Assembly (NCBI RefSeq): GCF_000008665.1
Contig: NC_000917.1
Span: forward strand, 1,530,001 to 1,562,000
Length of the DNA stretch: 32,000 nucleotides
Source of the DNA: Archaeoglobus fulgidus DSM 4304
GTDB taxonomy: Archaea; Halobacteriota; Archaeoglobi; Archaeoglobales; Archaeoglobaceae
Direction of reading: 5' to 3'
Shown: positions 1 through 8,642 of the stretch, in pieces
Layout: the number at the start of each line of letters is the position of its first letter
Numbering within the stretch: position 1 is the stretch's first letter
Translations under genes and position numbers: made by a program
The notes under the pieces: generated by a model
The model's database searches: none
Seen by the model: the letters and a program-made list of their open reading frames with translations, nothing else
Told to the model about the DNA's origin: nothing

Positions 1-2115
1 AGCTCTGGCAGAAATAACGAGAACGGCTCTATCAATCGTATCCCTGTCGTAGCTCAGCTCAAAATCGAAAAATCTGAAGGCTTCATCCAATTTTTTCCTT
101 AACTCCTCCTTAAGCTCCTCTAATTCGTACGCTGCCCCCCTGATGTCCTCCTCCTCATACATCTCGAAGGCCTTCTTCAGAAACTTGAAGACTCCAACGT
201 AATCAACAACCAGCCCAGCTCCCTTGAGGTTCTCCCCATCCTTAACAAAAGGCCTGTTGGTTCTCGCTATCGCCTGCAGCAATCTGTGCTCCTTTAATGG
301 CTTGTCGAGGTAGAGGGTTTGCAGGATTGGAGCATCAAAGCCAGTGAGGAGCATATCCGTTACAATGAGTATTTTGGGATTCTCGTACTTTTTGAACCTC
401 GTTATAATTTCCTCGTGAATCTCTTTTAGCTCGCTTTTGCCGTATTTTTTCCTCAACTTTTCCAGATAGTCCAGCAGTTCCTTTGAATCGTTCTGCTGGA
501 AGGTCATCACGATTTCGGTTTCGTTTTCATTCAGGAATTTGTCCAAAGCCTGCTTGTAGTAAAGGCACGCGTTTCTGCTGACGGCAACAACCATCGCCTT
601 GAATGGTTTAACGAATTGGATGTAGTGGCTCGCTATATCCCTCGCTATCCTCTCAATCCTCTTCTTGTCCTCCAGAATAACTTTAACCTTGTTCAGCCTC
701 CTCTTCAGGTCCTGCTCCACCTTCTCTCTATACTCCTCAGGAATCTCCTCAAGCTTTGAGGAGAGGAAGATTTCCAGATTTTCCCTATCAAGGTGGACCT
801 CATCGAGCCTCGACTGGAAGGCAATCTTAACGGTATAGCCATCATCTATGGAGTCGAGGATGAAGTAGCGGTCGAGGTATGGCTCGTCTGGATAGCCAAA
901 GGCAAGGTAGGTATCTCTCCCCTTCTTTGCTATCGGCGTTCCGGTGAAGGCGAAGAAGCTTGCATTCTTCAGTATGCTCCTCATGCTTGCCGCAAGTTCC
1001 CCATATTGCGTGCGATGCCCCTCATCGATCAAGCAAACTACATCTCTCCTCTTCGCTATGCTCCAGTGCTGCTTCTCCATCTGCTCCCTCAGCTTCGCAA
1101 GCTCCTCCTCCCTGAACTTGTGTATGAGGGTTATGAAGAATCCCCGCTTGCCATCAGCATGGCTTAGAACCTCCTTGAGATGGTCAATACTCTCTATCAA
1201 CTCATAGCTTATTTTGAGGTTTTTCAGCTCATCTGAAAGCTGCTTCTGCAGCTCAACTCTATCAACTACGAAGAAGATTGAGGGATTTCCGATGAGGTCC
1301 CTTATCTTGAGGGCTGAGAAAATCATGGTCAGCGTTTTGCCCGTTCCCTGCCAGTGCCAGATTAGGCCTTTGTTCCTCTCCTCAAAGCCCTTAGCCCAGC
1401 CAACTGCCCTCTCAACGATGGAGTTAACTGCTCTGTACTGCATGTATCTCGGCAGAACCTTTGTTATCTCCCCATCCTGCTCTCTGTAAATGGTGAAGTA
1501 GCGGATGAGGTCCAAGAAAATCTCAGGCTTCAGGATGTCGAACTGAGGTTTCCACTCGTAAACCGGAACGCTCTCCTCCCACCTCACGATGGGAAAGTAA
1601 ACGAGCCTGTCAGCGAAGCTGAAACCAATCTGAACATACTTGAAAAGCTCTGGGGCTGATTGCTCATACCTCTTTATCTGAGCATAGCCTTCCTTCCAGC
1701 TTTTGGCCATCTTCTTGCACTCAATGATGGCGAGGGGGATGCCGTTAACAAAGAGGGTGATGTCCGGGATGATGTCGGCGAAGCTAACCTGCCTTGAGAA
1801 GACGAGGCTGTTGGCTTCAGGGTTTGCGTAATCTATCAGCTTTATGGTCTTAAGGATGCCTTCTGAATCCTTTATTGTTACTCCCTTCTTTATCGCATCC
1901 AGAATTTGCATTGAGCCCTCAACGTCAAAGGAGCGGGTTTCGAGGTAGTTCAAAACCTCCTTGATATCCTCATCATCCACATCGTTCAGCCTTTTTAATG
2001 CAGCCTTAAATTCGGTTAAGTCGAGAATGTCAGGGCTGAGTTTCCTCTCCTCCCAGCCGAAGGATTTGAGAATCTCCGAAAGGTAGTCTTCGGATTGCTC
2101 TTTCTCTTTCTTCAC
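1..2115 (-). CDS. hsdR: Type I restriction enzyme R subunit (HsdR); C-terminal end cut by the window edge
   Basis: The minus-strand frame is open from GTG at 2115 to position 1 (705 codons). It is absent from the ORF track because the window truncates it. My translation contains a PD-(D/E)xK nuclease motif (FADIIPDITLFVNGIPLAIIECKK, about 1715-1790). It also has helicase motif I (WHWQGTGKTLTM, about 1320-1385), motif II (CLIDEGHRTQYG, about 1000-1035), motif III (FAFTGTPI) and motif VI (QAIARTNRPF, about 255-290). Confidence 0.9.
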   Translation of the reverse strand, partial: MKKEKEQSEDYLSEILKSFGWEERKLSPDILDLTEFKAALKRLNDVDDEDIKEVLNYLETRSFDVEGSMQILDAIKKGVTIKDSEGILKTIKLIDYANPEANSLVFSRQVSFADIIPDITLFVNGIPLAIIECKKMAKSWKEGYAQIKRYEQSAPELFKYVQIGFSFADRLVYFPIVRWEESVPVYEWKPQFDILKPEIFLDLIRYFTIYREQDGEITKVLPRYMQYRAVNSIVERAVGWAKGFEERNKGLIWHWQGTGKTLTMIFSALKIRDLIGNPSIFFVVDRVELQKQLSDELKNLKISYELIESIDHLKEVLSHADGKRGFFITLIHKFREEELAKLREQMEKQHWSIAKRRDVVCLIDEGHRTQYGELAASMRSILKNASFFAFTGTPIAKKGRDTYLAFGYPDEPYLDRYFILDSIDDGYTVKIAFQSRLDEVHLDRENLEIFLSSKLEEIPEEYREKVEQDLKRRLNKVKVILEDKKRIERIARDIASHYIQFVKPFKAMVVAVSRNACLYYKQALDKFLNENETEIVMTFQQNDSKELLDYLEKLRKKYGKSELKEIHEEIITRFKKYENPKILIVTDMLLTGFDAPILQTLYLDKPLKEHRLLQAIARTNRPFVKDGENLKGAGLVVDYVGVFKFLKKAFEMYEEEDIRGAAYELEELKEELRKKLDEAFRFFDFELSYDRDTIDRAVLVISARA

Positions 2116-2236
2116 CGAAATTAGTTTAATTTGGAGGGATAAAATTGTTTCGAAAGGTCAGAGAATTTTGCTGATAGCTTTGTAAATGTCCCACACCTCT
2201 ATTATACCAGCCTTCTTGATGAGGTCAAAGAGTAAG

Positions 2237-3151
2237 TTATATTTCATATACCAATAAATTCGCTACTTCATCCAATAACTTAACGATTTCATTAAAATAC
2301 TGAACTATTCCTAAATTTTCATCATATTTTTCAGGTGGCAATGTTTTGTTTGGATATCTGGCGAATGTGGCATGAGGATAGGTTATTATAGATAGCATAT
2401 AAAGCACAAGAAAGGTCGAACTCAGTTTTAATAACGTCTCCAGATTATTTAGGACTCTATCAACACTATCAATTAATTTTTCCAGAATAAATTTCTCGGA
2501 TGGATCCGAACTCTTTATTTCGCTTGCTTCATTCTTTAATTTGGAGAGTAACCCCAATATCTGGTTTTTAATTTCTTTATTCTCCAAGGCAATTTTTATT
2601 TTAATTGTGGCATTTATAATTCCTTTTATCTGATTTGAATCCATTTCTGCGATCTGTTTTCTACTCATATTTACAATTCTCACCAATTTGCGTATATCTT
2701 CATCTGAAATTTTTAGAAATTGTGTATCCAATCCGCCAATTTTTTGAATACTTTTTAAAAACAATTCTAATGATCTTTTGTACCTATCGAGAAGTCTAAT
2801 AAACGCTTTTGGCGAATCGTGCCCAACATAACCTTTCATCTCTTTTTTGCTCAATCCAAAAAACGCTAAAACATAAGCTTTAACATATTTCTCCACAGCT
2901 TGTTGTAAGTGGTACACAGCTAAAGAGTAAATTTTGGATTGATACAAAATCTTAACGGATTCAAAATCCTGTAGTGCCATTTTAACGAAGCTTTTTGCTT
3001 CAGATGATCTTCTCTCTTGCTCTTTCTTATCAATTTCATAAAATTTTGAAAATTCTGAAACAGCTTTAAGAAATTCTATTGAGTCCTTTTCGGATGATAA
3101 AATGGAAAATAAGCGTTCTATAATTTCCTCCGTGTTTCCTTTTTTATTCAT
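2237..3151 (-). CDS. HEPN-like domain protein with a roughly 140-aa helical insert, embedded between hsdS and hsdR
   Basis: 304-aa ORF. The N-terminal part ([37 protein letters not shown]...GHDSPKAF) resembles the HEPN helix 1-3 signature (..A.fH.QQAaEKalKA...tHdL). The C-terminus ([19 protein letters not shown]) resembles the HEPN closing ..aRYP....y.. element. Its start overlaps the hsdS stop by 8 nt. GC is far lower than the flanks: 16 of 60 in 2281-2340 and 15 of 60 in 2581-2640, against 26 of 60 in hsdR 1981-2040 and 32 of 60 in ilvB 10981-11040. Confidence 0.55.
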
Positions 3152-4418
3152 TTGCTTTCACCCTAACCCTCCTCCTTCCAGTCAGCAAATCGTTCATCAA
3201 ACCCTTCTTAATCCTCTCAAGCTTTTCCTTTCGTTTCCTTTCGAGTTCGAGCTTTTTGTCCACTGTTGAAAGAATTTCAGCGATTTTTTGCTGTTCTGGG
3301 AGAGGTGGGAGTGGGATTTTAAACTTTTTCAAGTTTGTTGCATTGATATTTGCTTGATGAACTGCAACAGTTGCCAATTGCTTAAGCCTACTCTGTGAAA
3401 ATATAAGGTAGAACGTTAGGAAATGAGGATGCAAAATTTCATGCTTAGGCCTCAATCTAATCAGATAAGAAGCAAAAACATAATAACCATCCAATAAAAA
3501 TATACCTGTCCTCCCAACAAGTTCTAAACTATTTGTGCGGTTGAATAAAACATCTCCTTTTTCTAATTTGAAATTCTTGAACGTTTCTTCATCAAGATCT
3601 GCATACTTGGCAATATCTGTAACAACATACCCATTTACAATTTCATCCATTCTAATAACTGGATATTTACCCTTATCCTTCAGCGGAACTGATAACCCAT
3701 ACTGGCACAATTCCAAAACATCCCCAAGCCTAACAACCTCCCACTCCTTCGGAATCCTCCCGATTTCGGTATCTTTAAACTCCTTGTGCCCTATCCCTTT
3801 GGTGAGAAGCTCCTGCATCAGGCCCTTCTTCAGCCTTTCAGTCTTCGCTATGGCTTCGTCAACCTTTTCTATGGCTTTATCAACCGTGCTGAGAATTTCG
3901 GCGATTTTTTGCTGTTCTGGGAGCGGAAGTAGTGGAATTAGTAATTCCTCAAGAGACTTTTTCGGCAATTCTTTAAAGGTGCTTCCACCACTTAATTGTT
4001 CGAGTTTCCGTTTAATCAATAGCAAGTAATAGCAATAAAACTCTGTGTTAATTTCTGAAGATTTTGGAATTAAACCTTTGCAGCCTTGGTTAAATGTAGT
4101 GTCCTCATCTACGATAGCAACATAACCGACTGGCGCACGGGTTGAGACAATAATCGAGCCTTTAGGCAATAATGTAAGGTTGTAATCTCTTAATGCTTTC
4201 TCAGTTATTTTTCTTTCTGAAACGGAAATATGTGTTCTCCCATTTAGTTTACTTAAATCAGTTGGAGTTAGCCAATTAATTGTTCCGTTTTCCCAATATT
4301 CTTCTTTTTTTGTAGATGGTGTCGTTCCCGTTTCAACATTGAAAATGTCCCCAAGCCTAACAACCTCCCAATCCTCAGGAATCCTCCCGATTGGTGTTTC
4401 CTTGTATCTGGATGCTAT
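3144..4418 (-). CDS. hsdS: Type I R-M specificity subunit HsdS with two target-recognition domains; the homology-supported 5' end lacks a canonical start codon
   Basis: The track ORF 3144-4169 starts at an internal TTG in the middle of TRD1. The same frame stays open upstream to 4463 and encodes [55 protein letters not shown], a typical HsdS N-terminus. It parallels the TRD2 start ([20 protein letters not shown]). The conserved coiled-coil spacer LP(L/P)[16 protein letters not shown] occurs twice. No ATG, GTG or TTG occurs between 4463 and 4170. An in-frame ATA at 4416-4418 lies 7 nt downstream of GGAGG. Confidence 0.85.
3272..3302. repeat. 31-nt direct repeat inside hsdS (partner copy at 3893-3923, 30 of 31 identical)
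   Basis: gaatttcagcgattttttgctgttctgggag at 3272-3302 against gaatttcggcgattttttgctgttctgggag at 3893-3923. Both encode PEQQKIAEI of the central and C-terminal conserved HsdS regions. Confidence 0.9.
3720..3764. repeat. 45-nt direct repeat inside hsdS (partner copy at 4348-4392, 42 of 45 identical)
   Basis: tccccaagcctaacaacctccca...ggaatcctcccgatt is present at both sites. Both encode the IGRIP(K/E)(E/D)WEVVRLGD segment that opens each TRD. Confidence 0.9.
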
Positions 4419-4420
4419 GT

Positions 4421-4864
4421 TTACCCCTCCCCTTTCAGCTTTCCAATCGCCTCTAAGGCTTTTTCAAGTTCATCGAGCAAACAGTATGCCTCAATCCCAT
4501 ATTTCTTGCCATTCCTTACCATTAATCTATCTGATGATATCAGGATGGAGTTCGTTAATCTGGCGGTGGCTATGAAATATGAGTCCGCAGCCCTTGGATG
4601 AACTTTTTCAGCGACATTTAAAGCCTCATCAAACACGAAATCCTCTGAAAGAATCTCGAAATCATATGTAAGTTCCTCAATATCCTTTCTCGAAATCTCA
4701 ATCCCAAGCCTTTTAGCTACTGAAATCAGCTCAATAACGAAGATTTTCGGAACAAATACAGTCAATCCCTCAATGGAATTCAAAAACTTCCTCGCTTTTT
4801 CATTTCTATTCTCATCCCTATCAAAAAGATAATCGACAAAAATCGATGTATCAATAACGATCAT
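4421..4864 (-). CDS. vapC: PIN-domain toxin (VapC family)
   Basis: 147 aa. [13 protein letters not shown] supplies the first acidic residue. Further conserved acidic positions lie in [19 protein letters not shown] and ILISSD, which is typical PIN spacing. Its start overlaps the upstream antitoxin gene by 14 nt. Confidence 0.8.
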
Positions 4865-5066
4865 CCCTGATCTCCTCTAATTCTCGATGAGCTCCCTCAA
4901 CTCTCTCAATTCTCTTCTCAAGCTCCCTGAGTTTTGCGTAAAATCTTCCTGTCACCTTTTTTGTTTCCCTTATCTCCACCTTAACAATCTCCCCCTCTCT
5001 AAGGCTAACTTTCCTGAGGGGCTTAAGAACTCCCTTCTGGTAAACAGCCTCGATAATCTCTCCCAT
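4851..5066 (-). CDS. DUF104/AF2212-like antitoxin partner of the PIN toxin (VapB-like)
   Basis: [32 protein letters not shown] matches the family signature (..IEAvYenGVlKPL.kvdL.EG..V.v.i). I prefer the ATG at 5066 over the track GTG at 5075 because that GTG lies inside an AGGTG Shine-Dalgarno just upstream of the ATG. Confidence 0.7.
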
Positions 5067-5100
5067 TTGAAACACCTTTTCTTCGTATTCTAATATCTTA

Positions 5101-5187
5101 AAACCAATAAAAACTTAACTTTTCCTCACTCAAAAACTCCTTAATCGATTTTGCGACTTTTGGGTGAACTATAATTTCATAACTCAT
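5101..5187 (-). pseudogene. Truncated RelE/ParE-like toxin stub (28 codons)
   Basis: Its ATG overlaps the stop of the upstream relB-like ORF in an ATGA junction (5184-5187). My translation is [29 protein letters not shown]. This follows the usual RelE/ParE N-terminal pattern (M.Y.I/V.I/V..ka.K.l..l) but stops after 28 codons, where about 85-95 would be expected. It is below the ORF-track size cutoff. Confidence 0.4.
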
Positions 5188-5405
5188 AGGCCGAGTTCAG
5201 CTTTAAGCTTCTCCCATGGAATTCCGTTCTTTTTCGTCTCTTCAACAAGCCTGTCAAGCTCCTTGGCCTCTTCCTCGCTGATTTCCTCTTCCTGTATCAT
5301 TCCAGCCTCAAGAAGTTCGATTTTACTGCTTAACTTCTTCAACTCCTCTCTTATGATTTTCAACTCATCATAAATTGCCTTTAAAAGCTCAGTATCACCA
5401 CTCAT
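5184..5405 (-). CDS. RelB-like / addiction-module antitoxin-like small protein
   Basis: 73 aa. An N-terminal coiled coil (LLKAIYDELKIIREELKKLSSKIELLEA) is followed by an acidic ISEEEAKELDRLVEE segment and a C-terminal IPWEKLKAELGL. This layout recalls archaeal RelB and 'putative addiction module component' antitoxins. It is translationally coupled to the relE-like stub. Confidence 0.45.
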   Translation of the reverse strand: MSGDTELLKAIYDELKIIREELKKLSSKIELLEAGMIQEEEISEEEAKELDRLVEETKKNGIPWEKLKAELGL

Positions 5406-5465
5406 TGAATTTTAATAAGCACGAGAAAATTTAAAGGTTTGCTGGAGTGGTCAGAAGCAGATTTA

Positions 5466-5648
5466 TCAAACTAAATCCCTTTTTAGCTCCATCCACGACT
5501 TATCTGTCTTAATCACTCCCTTTAGCTCATTCATCAGTTCAAAGAACCTGTCCCTCTCATTGAAGAATTTGGCAGTTTCCTCAACTGCTTTTCTAAACGC
5601 CTTTTCGGCGTTATCTGGAACGGATACTTTAATCGTAACCTCCCCCAT
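5466..5648 (-). CDS. Small hypothetical protein (60 aa), possibly an orphan antitoxin-like protein
   Basis: The ORF reads MGEVTIKVSVPDNAEKAFRKAVEETAKFFNERDRFFELMNELKGVIKTDKSWMELKRDLV. It has a short N-terminal beta-strand-like segment followed by helices, and a C-terminal SWMELKRDL similar to the neighbour's PWEKLKAEL. No family is recognised with confidence. Confidence 0.35.
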   Translation of the reverse strand: MGEVTIKVSVPDNAEKAFRKAVEETAKFFNERDRFFELMNELKGVIKTDKSWMELKRDLV

Positions 5649-5691
5649 GTATTTGGGTTGGTTTGAGATGTTAAATAACTTACTCCTATTT

Positions 5692-5728
5692 TCATAGCTC
5701 CCAATCTTCAGGCAGATTGATCGAGCAT
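5692..5728 (-). pseudogene. Relic of an hsdS 5' end immediately downstream of the hsdM stop
   Basis: An ATG at 5728 lies 1 nt after the hsdM TAA (5730-5732) and reads MLDQSA*. One frame over, the same stretch reads SINLPEDWEL* (stop 5692-5694). LPEDWE is the HsdS N-terminal signature also seen at 4365-4382 (IPEDWEV). Confidence 0.4.
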
Positions 5729-5729
5729 A

Positions 5730-7255
5730 TTATCCTCGCCCAAACCCCAACTCAGCAAGATACTCCTCTATCCTCCTCTCCACCTCATCAATCTCCCTCT
5801 CAATCCCCCTGAGCTCCTCCCACTCCTTGGCAACATCAATCTCCTCAACTTCCTCCTGCGGGAAGACATAAAGCGTAACGTTCAGGTTGTAGTCGTTCTT
5901 TCTCACTTCCTCGACATCAACAACCCTGCAGAATCCATCTCCATCCTTGAACTCCCTGTAAGCGCTGACTATCTTCTCAATATGCTTCTCTCCAAGCCTG
6001 TTCAGCTTCCTAACCTCAGGATGCTTCTCGTATTCGTTGCTTGCGTTAATAAACAGAATCTTTCCCTTCCTGCTCTCTGGCTTCTGCTTGTTGAAGATTA
6101 TAATCGCTCCCGGAGCTCCCGTGTTGTAGAAGAGCTTTTCAGGGAGCAGAATTACGCACTCGATTAAATCATCCTCAACCACAGCTTTCCTTATCGCCCC
6201 CTCCTTTCCTCCTCTGAAAAGGCACCCGTTATCGATTACAACACCAACCTTCTTTTTTGCCGATGCAAGCATGTGCTGAATCCACGCCCAGTCGGCTGAT
6301 TGCTTTGGAGTAAAGCCGTACCTGAACCTCTCATCGTAGAACTCAGCCTTTTTCAGCTCCTCCTCGCCATACCCATCCTGATTCCATGGTGGATTTGCAA
6401 TAACTATATCGAATTTTCTGAACGTCTCTCCTTCCTTAAACCTCGGATTTTTCAGCGTGTCGCCAACAACGAGGTTTATGTCCTTTATTCCGTGAACGAT
6501 GGCGTTCATCTTGGCTATGGCGTAGGTTGTTGGATTAACCTCCTGCCCGTAAAGGAATAGCTTCCTCACCTCCTCCTCGCCGTATTTCTCCTTAACGTAA
6601 TCGTAGGCCCTTATCAGCATCCTCGCATAGCCAGCAGCGGGATCATAAACGCTATCCATCGGCTTTGGATCAACAATTCTGACGATGAGCTCAACAACCT
6701 CCGAAGGGGTGAAAACCTCCCCCTCTTTGGCCTTCTGTGGGGCGAAGTAGCCGATAAGCCACTCGTAAGCGTCACCAAGAATGCTATCACTCGCCCTTCC
6801 CAGATTCAGTCCGCTGAAAAGCTCAAAAAGCTGGACGAGAATGTCGAAGTTGTCCCTTGCCTCGTGAACTCAAGAAAGTCCAGCCTGTCCACAACTCCTT
6901 GCAACTCAGGATTTTTCTCGGCGAGCAGCTTTAAAGCCTCAGAAAGCCTTACAGGCAGCTCATTAACGTTCTTCCTCAGCTCCTCCCAAGTGTATTTTTC
7001 AGGATAGTCAAATTTGTGGAAGGATCTGTCCTTTGCGAGGATTTTTGCCTCCTCCTCATCAACTCCTTTCTCCATTAAGGTTTTGAGAGCCTCCCTGTAC
7101 TCTCGCTTCCACTCATCGCTCAGCTTTTTAAGGAAGAGAAGGACGAGAATGTACTTGTAATCAACCCTCGTCCTAATCAGATCAGCAGCCTGCTTGCAGG
7201 CCCTTATTAGCTCGTCTTTCGTTGTTTCAATTTCGACGTAATCGGCAAGGGTCAT
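5730..7255 (-). pseudogene. hsdM: Type I R-M N6-adenine methyltransferase subunit HsdM, interrupted by a 1-nt frameshift
   Basis: Two track ORFs belong together. ORF 6806-7255 is the HsdM_N-like part (DLIRTRVDYKYILVLLFLKKLSDEW). ORF 5730-6659 is the catalytic part (YDPAAGYARML, IVIANPPWNQ). The stretch 6660-6853 in the downstream frame encodes DNFDILVQLFELFSGLNLGRASDSILGDAYEWLIGYFAPQKAKEGEVFTPSEVVELIVRIVDPKP, which is continuous HsdM sequence. The total span of 1526 nt is not divisible by 3. Confidence 0.85.
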
Positions 7256-7706: not shown

Positions 7707-8642
7707 ATGCTTGATATGCCAATCGACCCTGTTTACTACCAGCTTGCTGAGTATTTCGACAGTCTGCCGAAGTTCGACCAGTTTTCCTCGGCCAGAGAGT
7801 ACAGGGAGGCGATAAATCGAATATACGAGGAGAGAAACCGGCAGCTGAGCCAGCATGAGAGGGTTGAAAGAGTTGAGGACAGGACGATTAAGGGGAGGAA
7901 CGGAGACATCAGAGTCAGAGTTTACCAGCAGAAGCCCGATTCCCCGGTTCTGGTTTACTATCACGGTGGTGGATTTGTGATTTGCAGCATCGAGTCGCAC
8001 GACGCCTTATGCAGGAGAATTGCGAGACTTTCAAACTCTACCGTAGTCTCCGTGGATTACAGGCTCGCTCCTGAGCACAAGTTTCCCGCCGCAGTTTATG
8101 ATTGCTACGATGCGACCAAGTGGGTTGCTGAGAACGCCGAGGAGCTGAGGATTGACCCGTCAAAAATCTTCGTTGGGGGGGACAGTGCGGGAGGGAATCT
8201 TGCCGCGGCGGTTTCAATAATGGCGAGAGACAGCGGAGAAGATTTCATAAAGCATCAAATTCTAATTTACCCCGTTGTGAACTTTGTAGCCCCCACACCA
8301 TCGCTTCTGGAGTTTGGAGAGGGGCTGTGGATTCTCGACCAGAAGATAATGAGTTGGTTCTCGGAGCAGTACTTCTCCAGAGAGGAAGATAAGTTCAACC
8401 CCCTCGCCTCCGTAATCTTTGCGGACCTTGAGAACCTACCTCCTGCGCTGATCATAACCGCCGAATACGACCCGCTGAGAGATGAAGGAGAAGTTTTCGG
8501 GCAGATGCTGAGAAGAGCCGGTGTTGAGGCGAGCATCGTCAGATACAGAGGCGTGCTTCACGGATTCATCAATTACTATCCCGTGCTGAAGGCTGCGAGG
8601 GATGCGATAAACCAGATTGCCGCTCTTCTTGTGTTCGACTAG
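7707..8642 (+). CDS. estA: Carboxylesterase of the hormone-sensitive-lipase (HSL) family; matches AFEST of A. fulgidus as I recall it
   Basis: 311 aa. It has the HGGG oxyanion motif (VLVYYHGGGFVICS), the nucleophile elbow GDSAGG, and the C-terminal D...H of the catalytic triad (EYDPLRDEG, VLHGF). The N-terminus MLDMPIDPVYYQLAEYF is the one I remember for AFEST. Confidence 0.93.
   Translation: MLDMPIDPVYYQLAEYFDSLPKFDQFSSAREYREAINRIYEERNRQLSQHERVERVEDRTIKGRNGDIRVRVYQQKPDSPVLVYYHGGGFVICSIESHDALCRRIARLSNSTVVSVDYRLAPEHKFPAAVYDCYDATKWVAENAEELRIDPSKIFVGGDSAGGNLAAAVSIMARDSGEDFIKHQILIYPVVNFVAPTPSLLEFGEGLWILDQKIMSWFSEQYFSREEDKFNPLASVIFADLENLPPALIITAEYDPLRDEGEVFGQMLRRAGVEASIVRYRGVLHGFINYYPVLKAARDAINQIAALLVFD

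Follow-up and report, generated by a model that had tools for sequence, protein, structure and literature searches.

The stretch of DNA analysed here, referred to as the window, comprises 32,000 nucleotides (nt) of the Archaeoglobus fulgidus DSM 4304 genome (NC_000917.1, positions 1,530,001 to 1,562,000), and the gene under study occupies positions 2237-3151 of its minus strand, between hsdS and hsdR of a type I restriction-modification (R-M) locus. This open reading frame (ORF), designated ORF304 and, as a gene, HEPN-L, runs intact from ATG to TAA and encodes a 304 amino acid (aa) protein that we assign to a long form of the HEPN-T proteins (PF05168). A first-pass annotation, made from the letters of the sequence, had drawn attention to this 304-aa ORF and to several of its peptides, all of which were found in the sequence: they occupy residues 78-95, 110-117 (GHDSPKAF) and 258-267, and the last two are separated by 140 residues (118-257). 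A chance ORF is excluded by the length of the frame (915 nt at 31% GC), by the existence of homologues that are 29-57% identical and by the conservation of the motifs; the gene is under purifying selection.

All three hsd genes are represented in the window, hsdR only in part. The hsdS gene (3144-4465, minus strand) encodes two target-recognition domains (Pfam Methylase_S, E 3e-70) in a frame that opens after a stop near 4466. Its stop codon (3146-3144) and the HEPN-L start codon (3151-3149) lie within an 8-nt overlap, ATGAATAA (3144-3151, minus strand), and a Shine-Dalgarno-like element, GGTGA (3162-3158), is located 6 nt upstream of the HEPN-L start. With this arrangement HEPN-L is translationally coupled to hsdS. 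On the other side, an AT-rich spacer of 121 nt (2116-2236, minus strand) separates HEPN-L from the 5' part of hsdR (1-2115, minus strand), a long open frame that leaves the window at its left end and whose first in-frame start, the GTG at 2115, is the probable start codon. The coupling to hsdS and the place upstream of hsdR, both proposed in the first-pass annotation, were thus found as described. The spacer contains GGTATAATAG, whose TATAAT may be the TATA box of a separate hsdR promoter; in the homologous loci the corresponding spacers are 65-90 nt long. The same spacer carries the arrangement TTGACC-16 nt-TATAAT (2201-2228, minus strand), an 11/12 match to the bacterial consensus in an archaeal host. 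A Pfam scan of the eight minus-strand ORFs from 2237 to 7255 revealed no nucleotidyltransferase, and no minimal nucleotidyltransferase (MNT) was found in the 32-kb window by a small custom hidden Markov model (HMM) of limited sensitivity, in agreement with the previous remark that no MNT lies adjacent.

Further upstream, a toxin-antitoxin cassette, vapBC (4421-5075, minus strand), was identified by Pfam between hsdM and hsdS. It consists of the PIN toxin VapC (4421-4864) and an AF2212-like antitoxin (4851-5075), and two further small ORFs sit between it and hsdM. The hsdM gene (5745-7255, minus strand) contains one frameshift near 6861/6862, with the Pfam domains N6_Mtase and HsdM_N on two separate ORFs. 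Comparison by tblastn with intact HsdM from related loci followed frame -3 to 6863 and frame -2 from 6860; the frameshift (6855-6865) loses no residues, and its site is not a long homopolymer, so that it can represent either a pseudogene or a sequencing error. The translation of the 5' part of hsdS (4169-4466) begins the first target-recognition domain in typical fashion, but there is no ATG, GTG or TTG in the hsdS frame from the stop near 4466 until the TTG at 4169. A natural HsdS N-terminus would result from an ATA at about 4431-4429, located 5 nt past the vapC stop. The hsdS start may therefore be mutated or non-canonical, perhaps in connection with the insertion of the vapBC cassette.

The Pfam HEPN model PF05168 recognized ORF304 with a score of 36 bits (cut-off 22; E 8.6e-9) over residues 53-103, corresponding to positions 2-52 of the 117-position profile. 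The N-terminal half was aligned by hhalign to a canonical, MNT-adjacent HEPN protein of 131 aa with a probability of 97%, and the N-terminal part of the family profile matched the HEPN structures 1wol (E 1e-6) and 1o3u (E 2e-5). On the strength of these profile matches the N-terminal half of ORF304 is assigned to HEPN. As regards the C-terminal half, the segment TYPH..tRYPd aligned colinearly, below threshold, with the RYPD of 1wol and 1o3u, and in silico deletion of residues 131-236 (about 106 residues) extended the Pfam match to profile positions 2-94 (40.3 bits). The identification of the C-terminal half as HEPN is based only on this colinearity, on the invariant RYP motif and on the longer Pfam match after splicing. 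The HEPN assignment made earlier thus stands for the N-terminal half, whereas the C-terminal half has no independent significance, and a full four-helix HEPN domain in ORF304 appears likely but is not proven. NCBIfam gave no match for ORF304, and no ATPase domain was detected in it by Pfam, NCBIfam or PADLOC. A PADLOC Csm2 match of the insert described below (E 0.008) was obtained in 1 of 126 relatives and was treated as chance.

Structure prediction with AlphaFold2 (AF2) on a 13-sequence alignment yielded an all-helical model with a predicted local distance difference test score (pLDDT) of 81.7 and a predicted template modelling score (pTM) of 0.83. Outside the Pfam model, residues 1-45 form an N-terminal extension (3017-3151, minus strand) with AF2 helices at 4-17 and 21-39 (pLDDT 46-71); it is missing from many relatives, R-M-embedded or not, whose profile matches begin at 39-50. 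In the remainder of the model helices were placed at residues 42-71, 75-97, 102-109, 114-139, 237-265 and 286-303, with five more within 150-235. HEPN core helices 1 and 2 correspond to residues 47-97 (2861-3013, minus strand), the part supported by Pfam, hhalign and 1wol, and contain D62, Q83, Q84 and the Ex3K motif E87-K88-x-x-K91. They are followed by the GHDSPKAF element (residues 110-117; 2801-2824, minus strand), in which the invariant H111 marks the start of the connector between helices 2 and 3. This connector is about 125 residues longer in ORF304 than in the Pfam model and accommodates a helical insert (about residues 126-240; 2432-2776, minus strand) with AF2 helices at 150-160, 164-168, 172-189, 192-211 and 217-235; A168 and I175 are weakly conserved in the insert, which has no family match of its own. 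The motif H260-x4-R265-Y266-P267 (residues 257-267; 2351-2383, minus strand) is placed in the putative HEPN helix 3, and the C-terminal segment (residues 268-304; 2237-2350, minus strand), with Y276 and G281-I282-V283, ends in the AF2 helix 286-303, a putative HEPN helix 4. The first-pass annotation had proposed a helical or coiled-coil insertion. A five-helix module between the two halves is indeed indicated by AF2 and by the splicing experiment in silico, but with its high pTM the model speaks for a compact globule and not for an extended coiled coil. AF2 modelling of the artificial spliced core from a single sequence gave a pLDDT of 53 and was unusable as a model.

In an alignment of 126 sequences E87, K88, K91 and H111 were invariant, and D62, Q83, Q84, P114, T257, P259, H260, R265, Y266, P267, Y276, G281 and I282 were conserved in at least 90%. 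Among the best 147 near-full-length relatives the conservation of H260, R265 and Y266 was at least 98%. The conserved set was the same in members inside and outside R-M loci. Such a constellation of polar residues looks typical of an active or ligand-binding site. The stretch E87-K88-Y-V-K91 represents the Ex3[KR] motif of HEPN helix 2, where an acidic residue is typically found in this context (PMC3710099), and R265 probably corresponds to the arginine of the Rx4-6H motif of HEPN RNases. Conserved Arg and His residues were thus found by the homologue alignment (R265, H111 and H260), but the H-x5-R spacing read from the sequence previously is in fact H260-x4-R265. In AF0298-type HEPN-T proteins and in AbiV the motif histidine is missing, and an alternative active site may be formed with a conserved histidine of the helix-2/helix-3 insert; the connector between these helices is the usual site of inserts in HEPN domains (PMC3710099). 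The position of H111, the presence of R265 and the lack of the motif histidine in ORF304 match this description.

A word-indexed search of 5.8 billion proteins returned 13 homologues of ORF304 with 29-57% identity. An exhaustive search with an HMM built on the alignment of these 13 sequences detected 1896 clusters (at 50% identity) with E<=1e-3, 759 with E<=1e-10 and 104 with E<=1e-30; among the best 150 matches most were 250-340 aa long and spanned the whole profile. All 126 aligned relatives matched PF05168, and 18 of them also matched HEPN_AbiV (best E 7.7e-6). ORF304 is accordingly placed, by profile comparison, in a large unnamed "long HEPN-T" family near the AF0298 and AbiV branch. Taxonomic labels among the family members were few and all archaeal. 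A scan of 2.9 million viral contigs yielded no long-form member, only three short canonical-HEPN matches, and a viral origin was rejected on this result.

The genomic context was most uniform among the close relatives (at least 40% identity; homologous loci are referred to by L numbers). In every member of this clade for which the context was available, hsdS immediately preceded the gene, and hsdR and a YgjP-like gene came after it. The named records are from Archaeoglobus sp. JdFR-41, a metagenome-assembled genome of Methanosarcinales and Methanoperedens, and further metagenome contigs show the same order. The junction with hsdS was an 8-nt overlap (L001, L012) or a 1-nt spacing (L005, L006). 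Among the R-M-embedded genes as a whole, one locus (L068/L077) has a 264-aa ORF interposed between hsdS and HEPN-L. The picture changed in the wider family, sampled as 75 distinct metagenome loci: Hsd genes were present in 29 of them, HsdS was the upstream neighbour in 18 of 65 visible cases, and HsdR the downstream neighbour in 13 of 61. The expectation of the first-pass annotation that homologues would recur next to hsdS and hsdR thus held for all close relatives with context, whereas about 60% of the wider-family loci lie outside R-M systems.

Several other features of these operons were noted. The YgjP-like gene (PF01863, SprT-like) follows hsdR, usually overlapping it, in L001, L003-L006, L008, L020, L023, L038, L075, L077 and L094; in the A. 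fulgidus locus its position falls beyond the left edge of the window. The hsdM-hsdS slot is a cargo site, occupied by VapBC and two small ORFs here (4421-5648), by a TIR protein and a 504-aa ORF in L005 (3801-6646) and by Kiwa KwaA/KwaB in L006 (2415-3917). Between HEPN-L and hsdR, MNT-HepT or MNT-HEPN pairs or a second long-HEPN paralogue are sometimes found. In four loci (L005 8001-9840, L064 926-2688, L068 5000-6852 and L075 5971-7838) two long-HEPN paralogues stand in tandem between hsdS and hsdR; in two of the four, one copy lacks H111 or H260, and the tandem pairs may form heterodimers with one degenerate site. Complete pairs of MNT with HepT or a short HEPN adjoin HEPN-L in L005 (9824-10949), L012 (2828-3497), L006 (6367-7054) and L101 (7105-8080), and further such pairs were found in L015, L008/L014 and L067, both within and outside R-M operons. 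Some copies of the gene are decayed: in L010 (2129-3703) a half-size hsdS (211 aa) precedes a HEPN gene split into 102 and 214 aa (228 aa by our own ORF call), and in L006 (5292-6255) the HEPN ORF ends at 230 aa, with a 108-aa ORF overlapping its end.

The explanation that we favour, with a probability of about one half, is that ORF304 is a long-form HEPN-T protein of the AF0298/AbiV-like branch that serves as a latent RNA-targeting antiviral effector made together with HsdS. HEPN-L would be the last cistron of an hsdM-(vapBC cargo)-hsdS unit, with the spacer before hsdR. Its product would be built, in order, from the two N-terminal helices, HEPN helices 1 and 2 with the Ex3K motif, H111, the five-helix module, helix 3 and helix 4, the module (about 125 residues) having grown out of the helix-2/helix-3 connector, a known variable site of HEPN domains, and acting as a regulatory, sensor or docking element. 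An RNase or RNA-binding role is suggested by analogy with the superfamily and with AbiV, reported to cleave rRNA, and the strict coupling to hsdS in the close clade suggests that the dosage of the protein, perhaps also its activity, is linked to the specificity subunit. On this basis a latent RNA-cleaving, or at least RNA-binding, effector might be produced in a fixed ratio with HsdS and add a second, abortive-infection-type layer to type I R-M. The presence of TIR, KwaAB, VapBC and MNT-HepT as cargo in the same operons is supporting context. RNase activity, dimerization, a defence function and control by the Hsd complex are all inferred from these comparisons. If the explanation is true, a role would be assigned to a sizeable family that has no name as yet (759 clusters at 50% identity, E<=1e-10) and that current defence-finding tools miss. 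The operon type hsdM-[cargo]-hsdS-HEPN-L-[cargo]-hsdR-ygjP looks like a recurrent docking site and could be mined for archaeal defence genes.

A number of results weigh against this explanation. The canonical Rx4-6H motif is missing, as the first-pass annotation had noticed: positions +5 to +7 after R265 (T, L and P) are variable, and no His or Asp is conserved there family-wide. The C-terminal half alone, searched as a 39-sequence profile, matched no HEPN structure in the PDB (a chance match with E 0.98 was all that was obtained); none of the 39 sequences had a Pfam match in this half, and hhalign gave it a probability of 0.16% against canonical HEPN. In a Foldseek search of the PDB with the full AF2 model there was no significant match; the best HEPN structure was 4nqf (E 0.76, probability 0.66) and the other matches were generic helical bundles, so that of the two checks proposed for the HEPN fold the profile comparison gave matches in Pfam and the PDB and the structural one did not. 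We ascribe the lack of a global Foldseek match to the insert, which defeats global matching. No defence model of PADLOC-DB v2.0.0, PDC and HEC included, matched the family convincingly, single members giving weak matches. Finally, 46 of the 75 wider-family loci lack any Hsd gene, which means that the coupling to R-M is not obligatory, and if the hsdM frameshift and the lack of a canonical hsdS start are real, a toxin masked by the R-M enzyme should have turned harmful in this strain.

The two last points also bear on the alternative that HEPN-L is an autonomous AbiV-like toxin or abortive infection gene that travels as a hitch-hiker in type I operons, its transfer being linked to theirs with no physical or regulatory interplay with Hsd proteins. 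In the 46 loci without Hsd genes the neighbours were mixed and there was no recurrent partner, housekeeping genes standing beside some defence-type domains (AAA_21/AbiEii, SMC_N, UvrD, HNH, nSTAND3, AIPR and resolvase). On long contigs HEPN-L was found, in one case, after ygjP of a type I operon, that is, outside the slot between hsdS and hsdR, and in others next to AbiEii and HNH, with a STAND ATPase at a distance of about 4 kb, next to PDDEXK and a HerA-like gene, next to an MNT-HEPN pair, or in the vicinity of an N6_N4 methylase and AbiEii. With so many relatives outside R-M loci, the protein must be self-sufficient and cannot depend on Hsd subunits in general. The heterogeneity of the neighbours (STAND NTPases among them) and the identity of the conserved residues in R-M and non-R-M members fit a hitch-hiking gene, as does the observation that unrelated defence genes are commonly embedded in type I R-M operons (10.1101/2024.01.29.577857). 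Moreover, should the hsdM and hsdS defects both be genuine, this locus has an inactive R-M enzyme but an intact HEPN gene, a combination that fits an autonomous or inert protein better than a toxin checked only by the R-M complex. Against a mere passenger stands the behaviour of HEPN-L within the type I operons: whereas other cargo occupies different slots, HEPN-L nearly always comes right behind hsdS, and the 8-nt overlap often recurs; the adjacency to hsdS is kept even where MNT-HepT cargo parts HEPN-L from hsdR; and the divergence of HEPN-L roughly tracks that of HsdR. Taking into account both sets of observations, we regard independent hitch-hiking as a possibility to be taken seriously, although we doubt it.

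The missing catalytic histidine of Rx4-6H is also what would be expected of a non-catalytic accessory subunit, an inactive HEPN protein that binds nucleotide, RNA or DNA and regulates or assembles the type I enzyme, for example in HsdR loading or restriction alleviation. The HEPN domain of sacsin, which belongs to PF05168, binds nucleotides, and the coupling of the gene to hsdS would suit a stoichiometric component. HEPN domains that lack the motif may be binding domains (PMC3710099). On the other hand, the two invariant or nearly invariant histidines, together with an arginine and a glutamate in the expected places, suggest chemistry beyond binding; many family members have no R-M partner, and type I systems of the same kind exist that lack HEPN-L between hsdS and hsdR (L074, L094). 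An accessory subunit therefore seems unlikely.

Control in trans was considered as well. A solo HEPN toxin might be held in check by an MNT encoded nearby or elsewhere that AMPylates Y266 or Y276, as MntA does with HepT. Both tyrosines are conserved in at least 90% of the aligned relatives, and MNT pairs with HepT or a short HEPN adjoin HEPN-L or lie a few genes off in L005, L008/L014, L012/L013, L015, L067 and L101/L102 (HepT also in L006). These nearby MNTs are, however, already paired with a HEPN or HepT protein of their own, most loci, including the present window, have no MNT in the vicinity, and the adjacency may be incidental, given the great abundance of MNT-HEPN pairs in archaeal defence islands. 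In the light of these observations we consider this mode of control very improbable.

The base composition of HEPN-L had led the first-pass annotation to regard it as a recent insertion between hsdS and hsdR. The gene is indeed AT-rich: its GC content is 30.8% (0.30-0.32 in 300-nt windows) as compared with a window mean of 48.2% and about 48% in hsdM and hsdR, although the 25-27% counted previously in two 60-nt lines does not hold for the whole ORF. The anomaly is real at synonymous sites, the GC content of third codon positions (GC3) being 0.285 in HEPN-L, 0.638 in hsdR, 0.58-0.60 in hsdM and 0.615 in the esterase gene. The latter is located at 7707-8642 of the plus strand, and its product matches PDB 1JJI, which we take to be the A. 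fulgidus carboxylesterase AFEST, over its full length (311 residues, 703 bits). Nor does the low-GC tract simply coincide with the ORF boundaries: the trough is deepest over HEPN-L, but all of 2100-5700, including hsdS, vapBC and the two small ORFs, is below the 48% mean, and these genes are of intermediate composition. Comparison with related loci placed the anomaly in another light. In all 14 loci with a long hsdR the GC3 of HEPN-L was below that of hsdR (mean difference -0.17), and in 47 of 66 loci it was below the mean of the neighbours (Wilcoxon p = 5e-7). Because HEPN-L fell below hsdR in every one of these 14 loci, AT-richness characterizes the family and is not the sign of a local event; it could reflect frequent exchange of cassettes or selection for weak expression. 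The divergence of HEPN-L (44-57% identity) tracks, roughly, that of HsdR (38-62% identity between the window protein and Pfam-annotated HsdR of related loci), HsdM being 67-70% identical to the window protein, and the locus nearest by HsdR (L004) also bears the nearest HEPN-L (P0003, 57%). Since the order hsdS-HEPN-hsdR recurs in several archaeal lineages (Archaeoglobus sp. JdFR-41, Methanosarcinales, Methanoperedens), the position is ancestral. A foreign gene newly inserted, or a decaying remnant with no role in the operon, can appeal to the GC3 contrast with hsdM and hsdR and to a locus that may be decaying (frameshifted hsdM, hsdS without canonical start), but ORF304 is intact and keeps all residues that are invariant in the family, and with the identical position in distant archaea, the co-divergence with HsdR and the family-wide low GC3, this notion was rejected, being largely refuted by the conserved synteny, and we attach almost no weight to it.

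Among the closest known proteins are the AF0298-type HEPN-T proteins (2HSB, 1WOL, 1O3U, 1UFB), which belong to the same Pfam family, PF05168, matched by ORF304 above the gathering score. They share with it the Ex3K motif on helix 2, the RYP arginine on helix 3 and a conserved histidine just past helix 2 that replaces the motif histidine (PMC3710099). Unlike these proteins of about 120-135 aa, ORF304 has a connector that is about 125 residues longer and carries its own five-helix module, an additional, nearly invariant histidine (H260) five residues before R265, and a two-helix N-terminal extension; it has no MNT partner but is coupled to hsdS instead. HepT of the HepT-MntA system is a member of the same superfamily, and such pairs adjoin HEPN-L in several homologous loci. 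HepT proteins (DUF86/PF01934, about 120-140 aa), however, contain Rx4HxY and always have an adjacent MNT, normally 5' of the HEPN gene, whereas ORF304 is a 304-aa PF05168 protein in a window where no MNT was detected, with hsdS upstream and hsdR downstream.

The closest relative with reported biochemistry among those found is AbiV of Lactococcus (PF18728), which is reported to be a HEPN RNase that cleaves rRNA and to resemble AF0298 and TT1696 most closely in structure (10.1101/2024.05.05.592566). Like ORF304 it has extra helices between the core helix pairs. Of the 126 relatives, 18 match HEPN_AbiV and 6 the PADLOC AbiV model, weakly, but ORF304 itself had no AbiV match at E<=1 (Pfam) or E<=10 (PADLOC), and the long-HEPN family thus appears as a neighbouring branch of AbiV and not as a member. 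AbiV is bacterial, about 200 aa long, and its reported RNHKSKH (Rx5H) motif in a flexible middle segment is absent from ORF304. It is reported to be under an upstream RNA antitoxin; the corresponding region of ORF304 is hsdS coding sequence, and a search for an AbiV-like RNA antitoxin in the 121-nt spacer on the other side gave a folding z-score of +0.84 and no conservation in the homologous spacers from four loci.

In its genomic setting HEPN-L invites comparison with PrrC of EcoprrI, a HEPN-superfamily protein encoded within a type I R-M operon. In the prrA-D cluster prrC lies between hsdS and hsdR, the same slot as that of HEPN-L. PrrC differs in having an N-terminal ABC-ATPase and the canonical Rx4-6H motif, both missing from ORF304, in being bacterial and in its T4 Stp trigger. 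The logic shared with PrrC would be a back-up RNase behind restriction; what is shown of the parallel is the genomic position of HEPN-L and its coupling to hsdS. Masking of HEPN-L by the restriction complex in the manner of PrrC is plausible. A detailed version, in which HEPN-L is an archaeal, ATPase-less PrrC analogue, made 1:1 with HsdS and docked by its insert onto M2S1 or R2M2S1, with an RNase centred on H111, H260 and R265 that is freed upon viral inactivation or titration of the type I enzyme, is put forward as a speculative proposal for which the odds are rather long. If it were true, an R-M "guard" would be described in archaea for the first time, and with it a novel mode of control over a HEPN nuclease. 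More generally, if the protein is an RNase linked to HsdS, the PrrC paradigm, restriction combined with a latent RNA-cleaving suicide module, would hold in archaea too, and the archaeal solution would dispense with the ABC ATPase and use a non-canonical HEPN site, its probable control element being the large insert in the connector.

The first-pass annotation had considered an effector of this kind undescribed, but the idea is not new. The embedding of prrC in hsdMSR and the clustering of PF05168 HEPN-T genes with R-M operons were described, and the PrrC analogy proposed for 16 HEPN clades, by Anantharaman et al. in 2013 (PMC3710099); in the text of its supplement none of the candidate A. fulgidus locus tags AF1707-AF1711 occurs. 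Payne et al. in 2024 (10.1101/2024.01.29.577857) formalized "guilt by embedding" in type I R-M operons. Their R-M-embedded candidates (PDC/HEC) follow the same logic as HEPN-L, a gene inside a type I R-M operon beside defence cargo, but HEC-08, a DUF3644 HEPN, has the canonical motif, unlike ORF304. With the idea in print since 2013 and again in 2024, the advance would be a concrete, testable archaeal case and not a new concept; what is new in it is the long connector insert, the non-canonical site, the coupling to hsdS and the archaeal setting.

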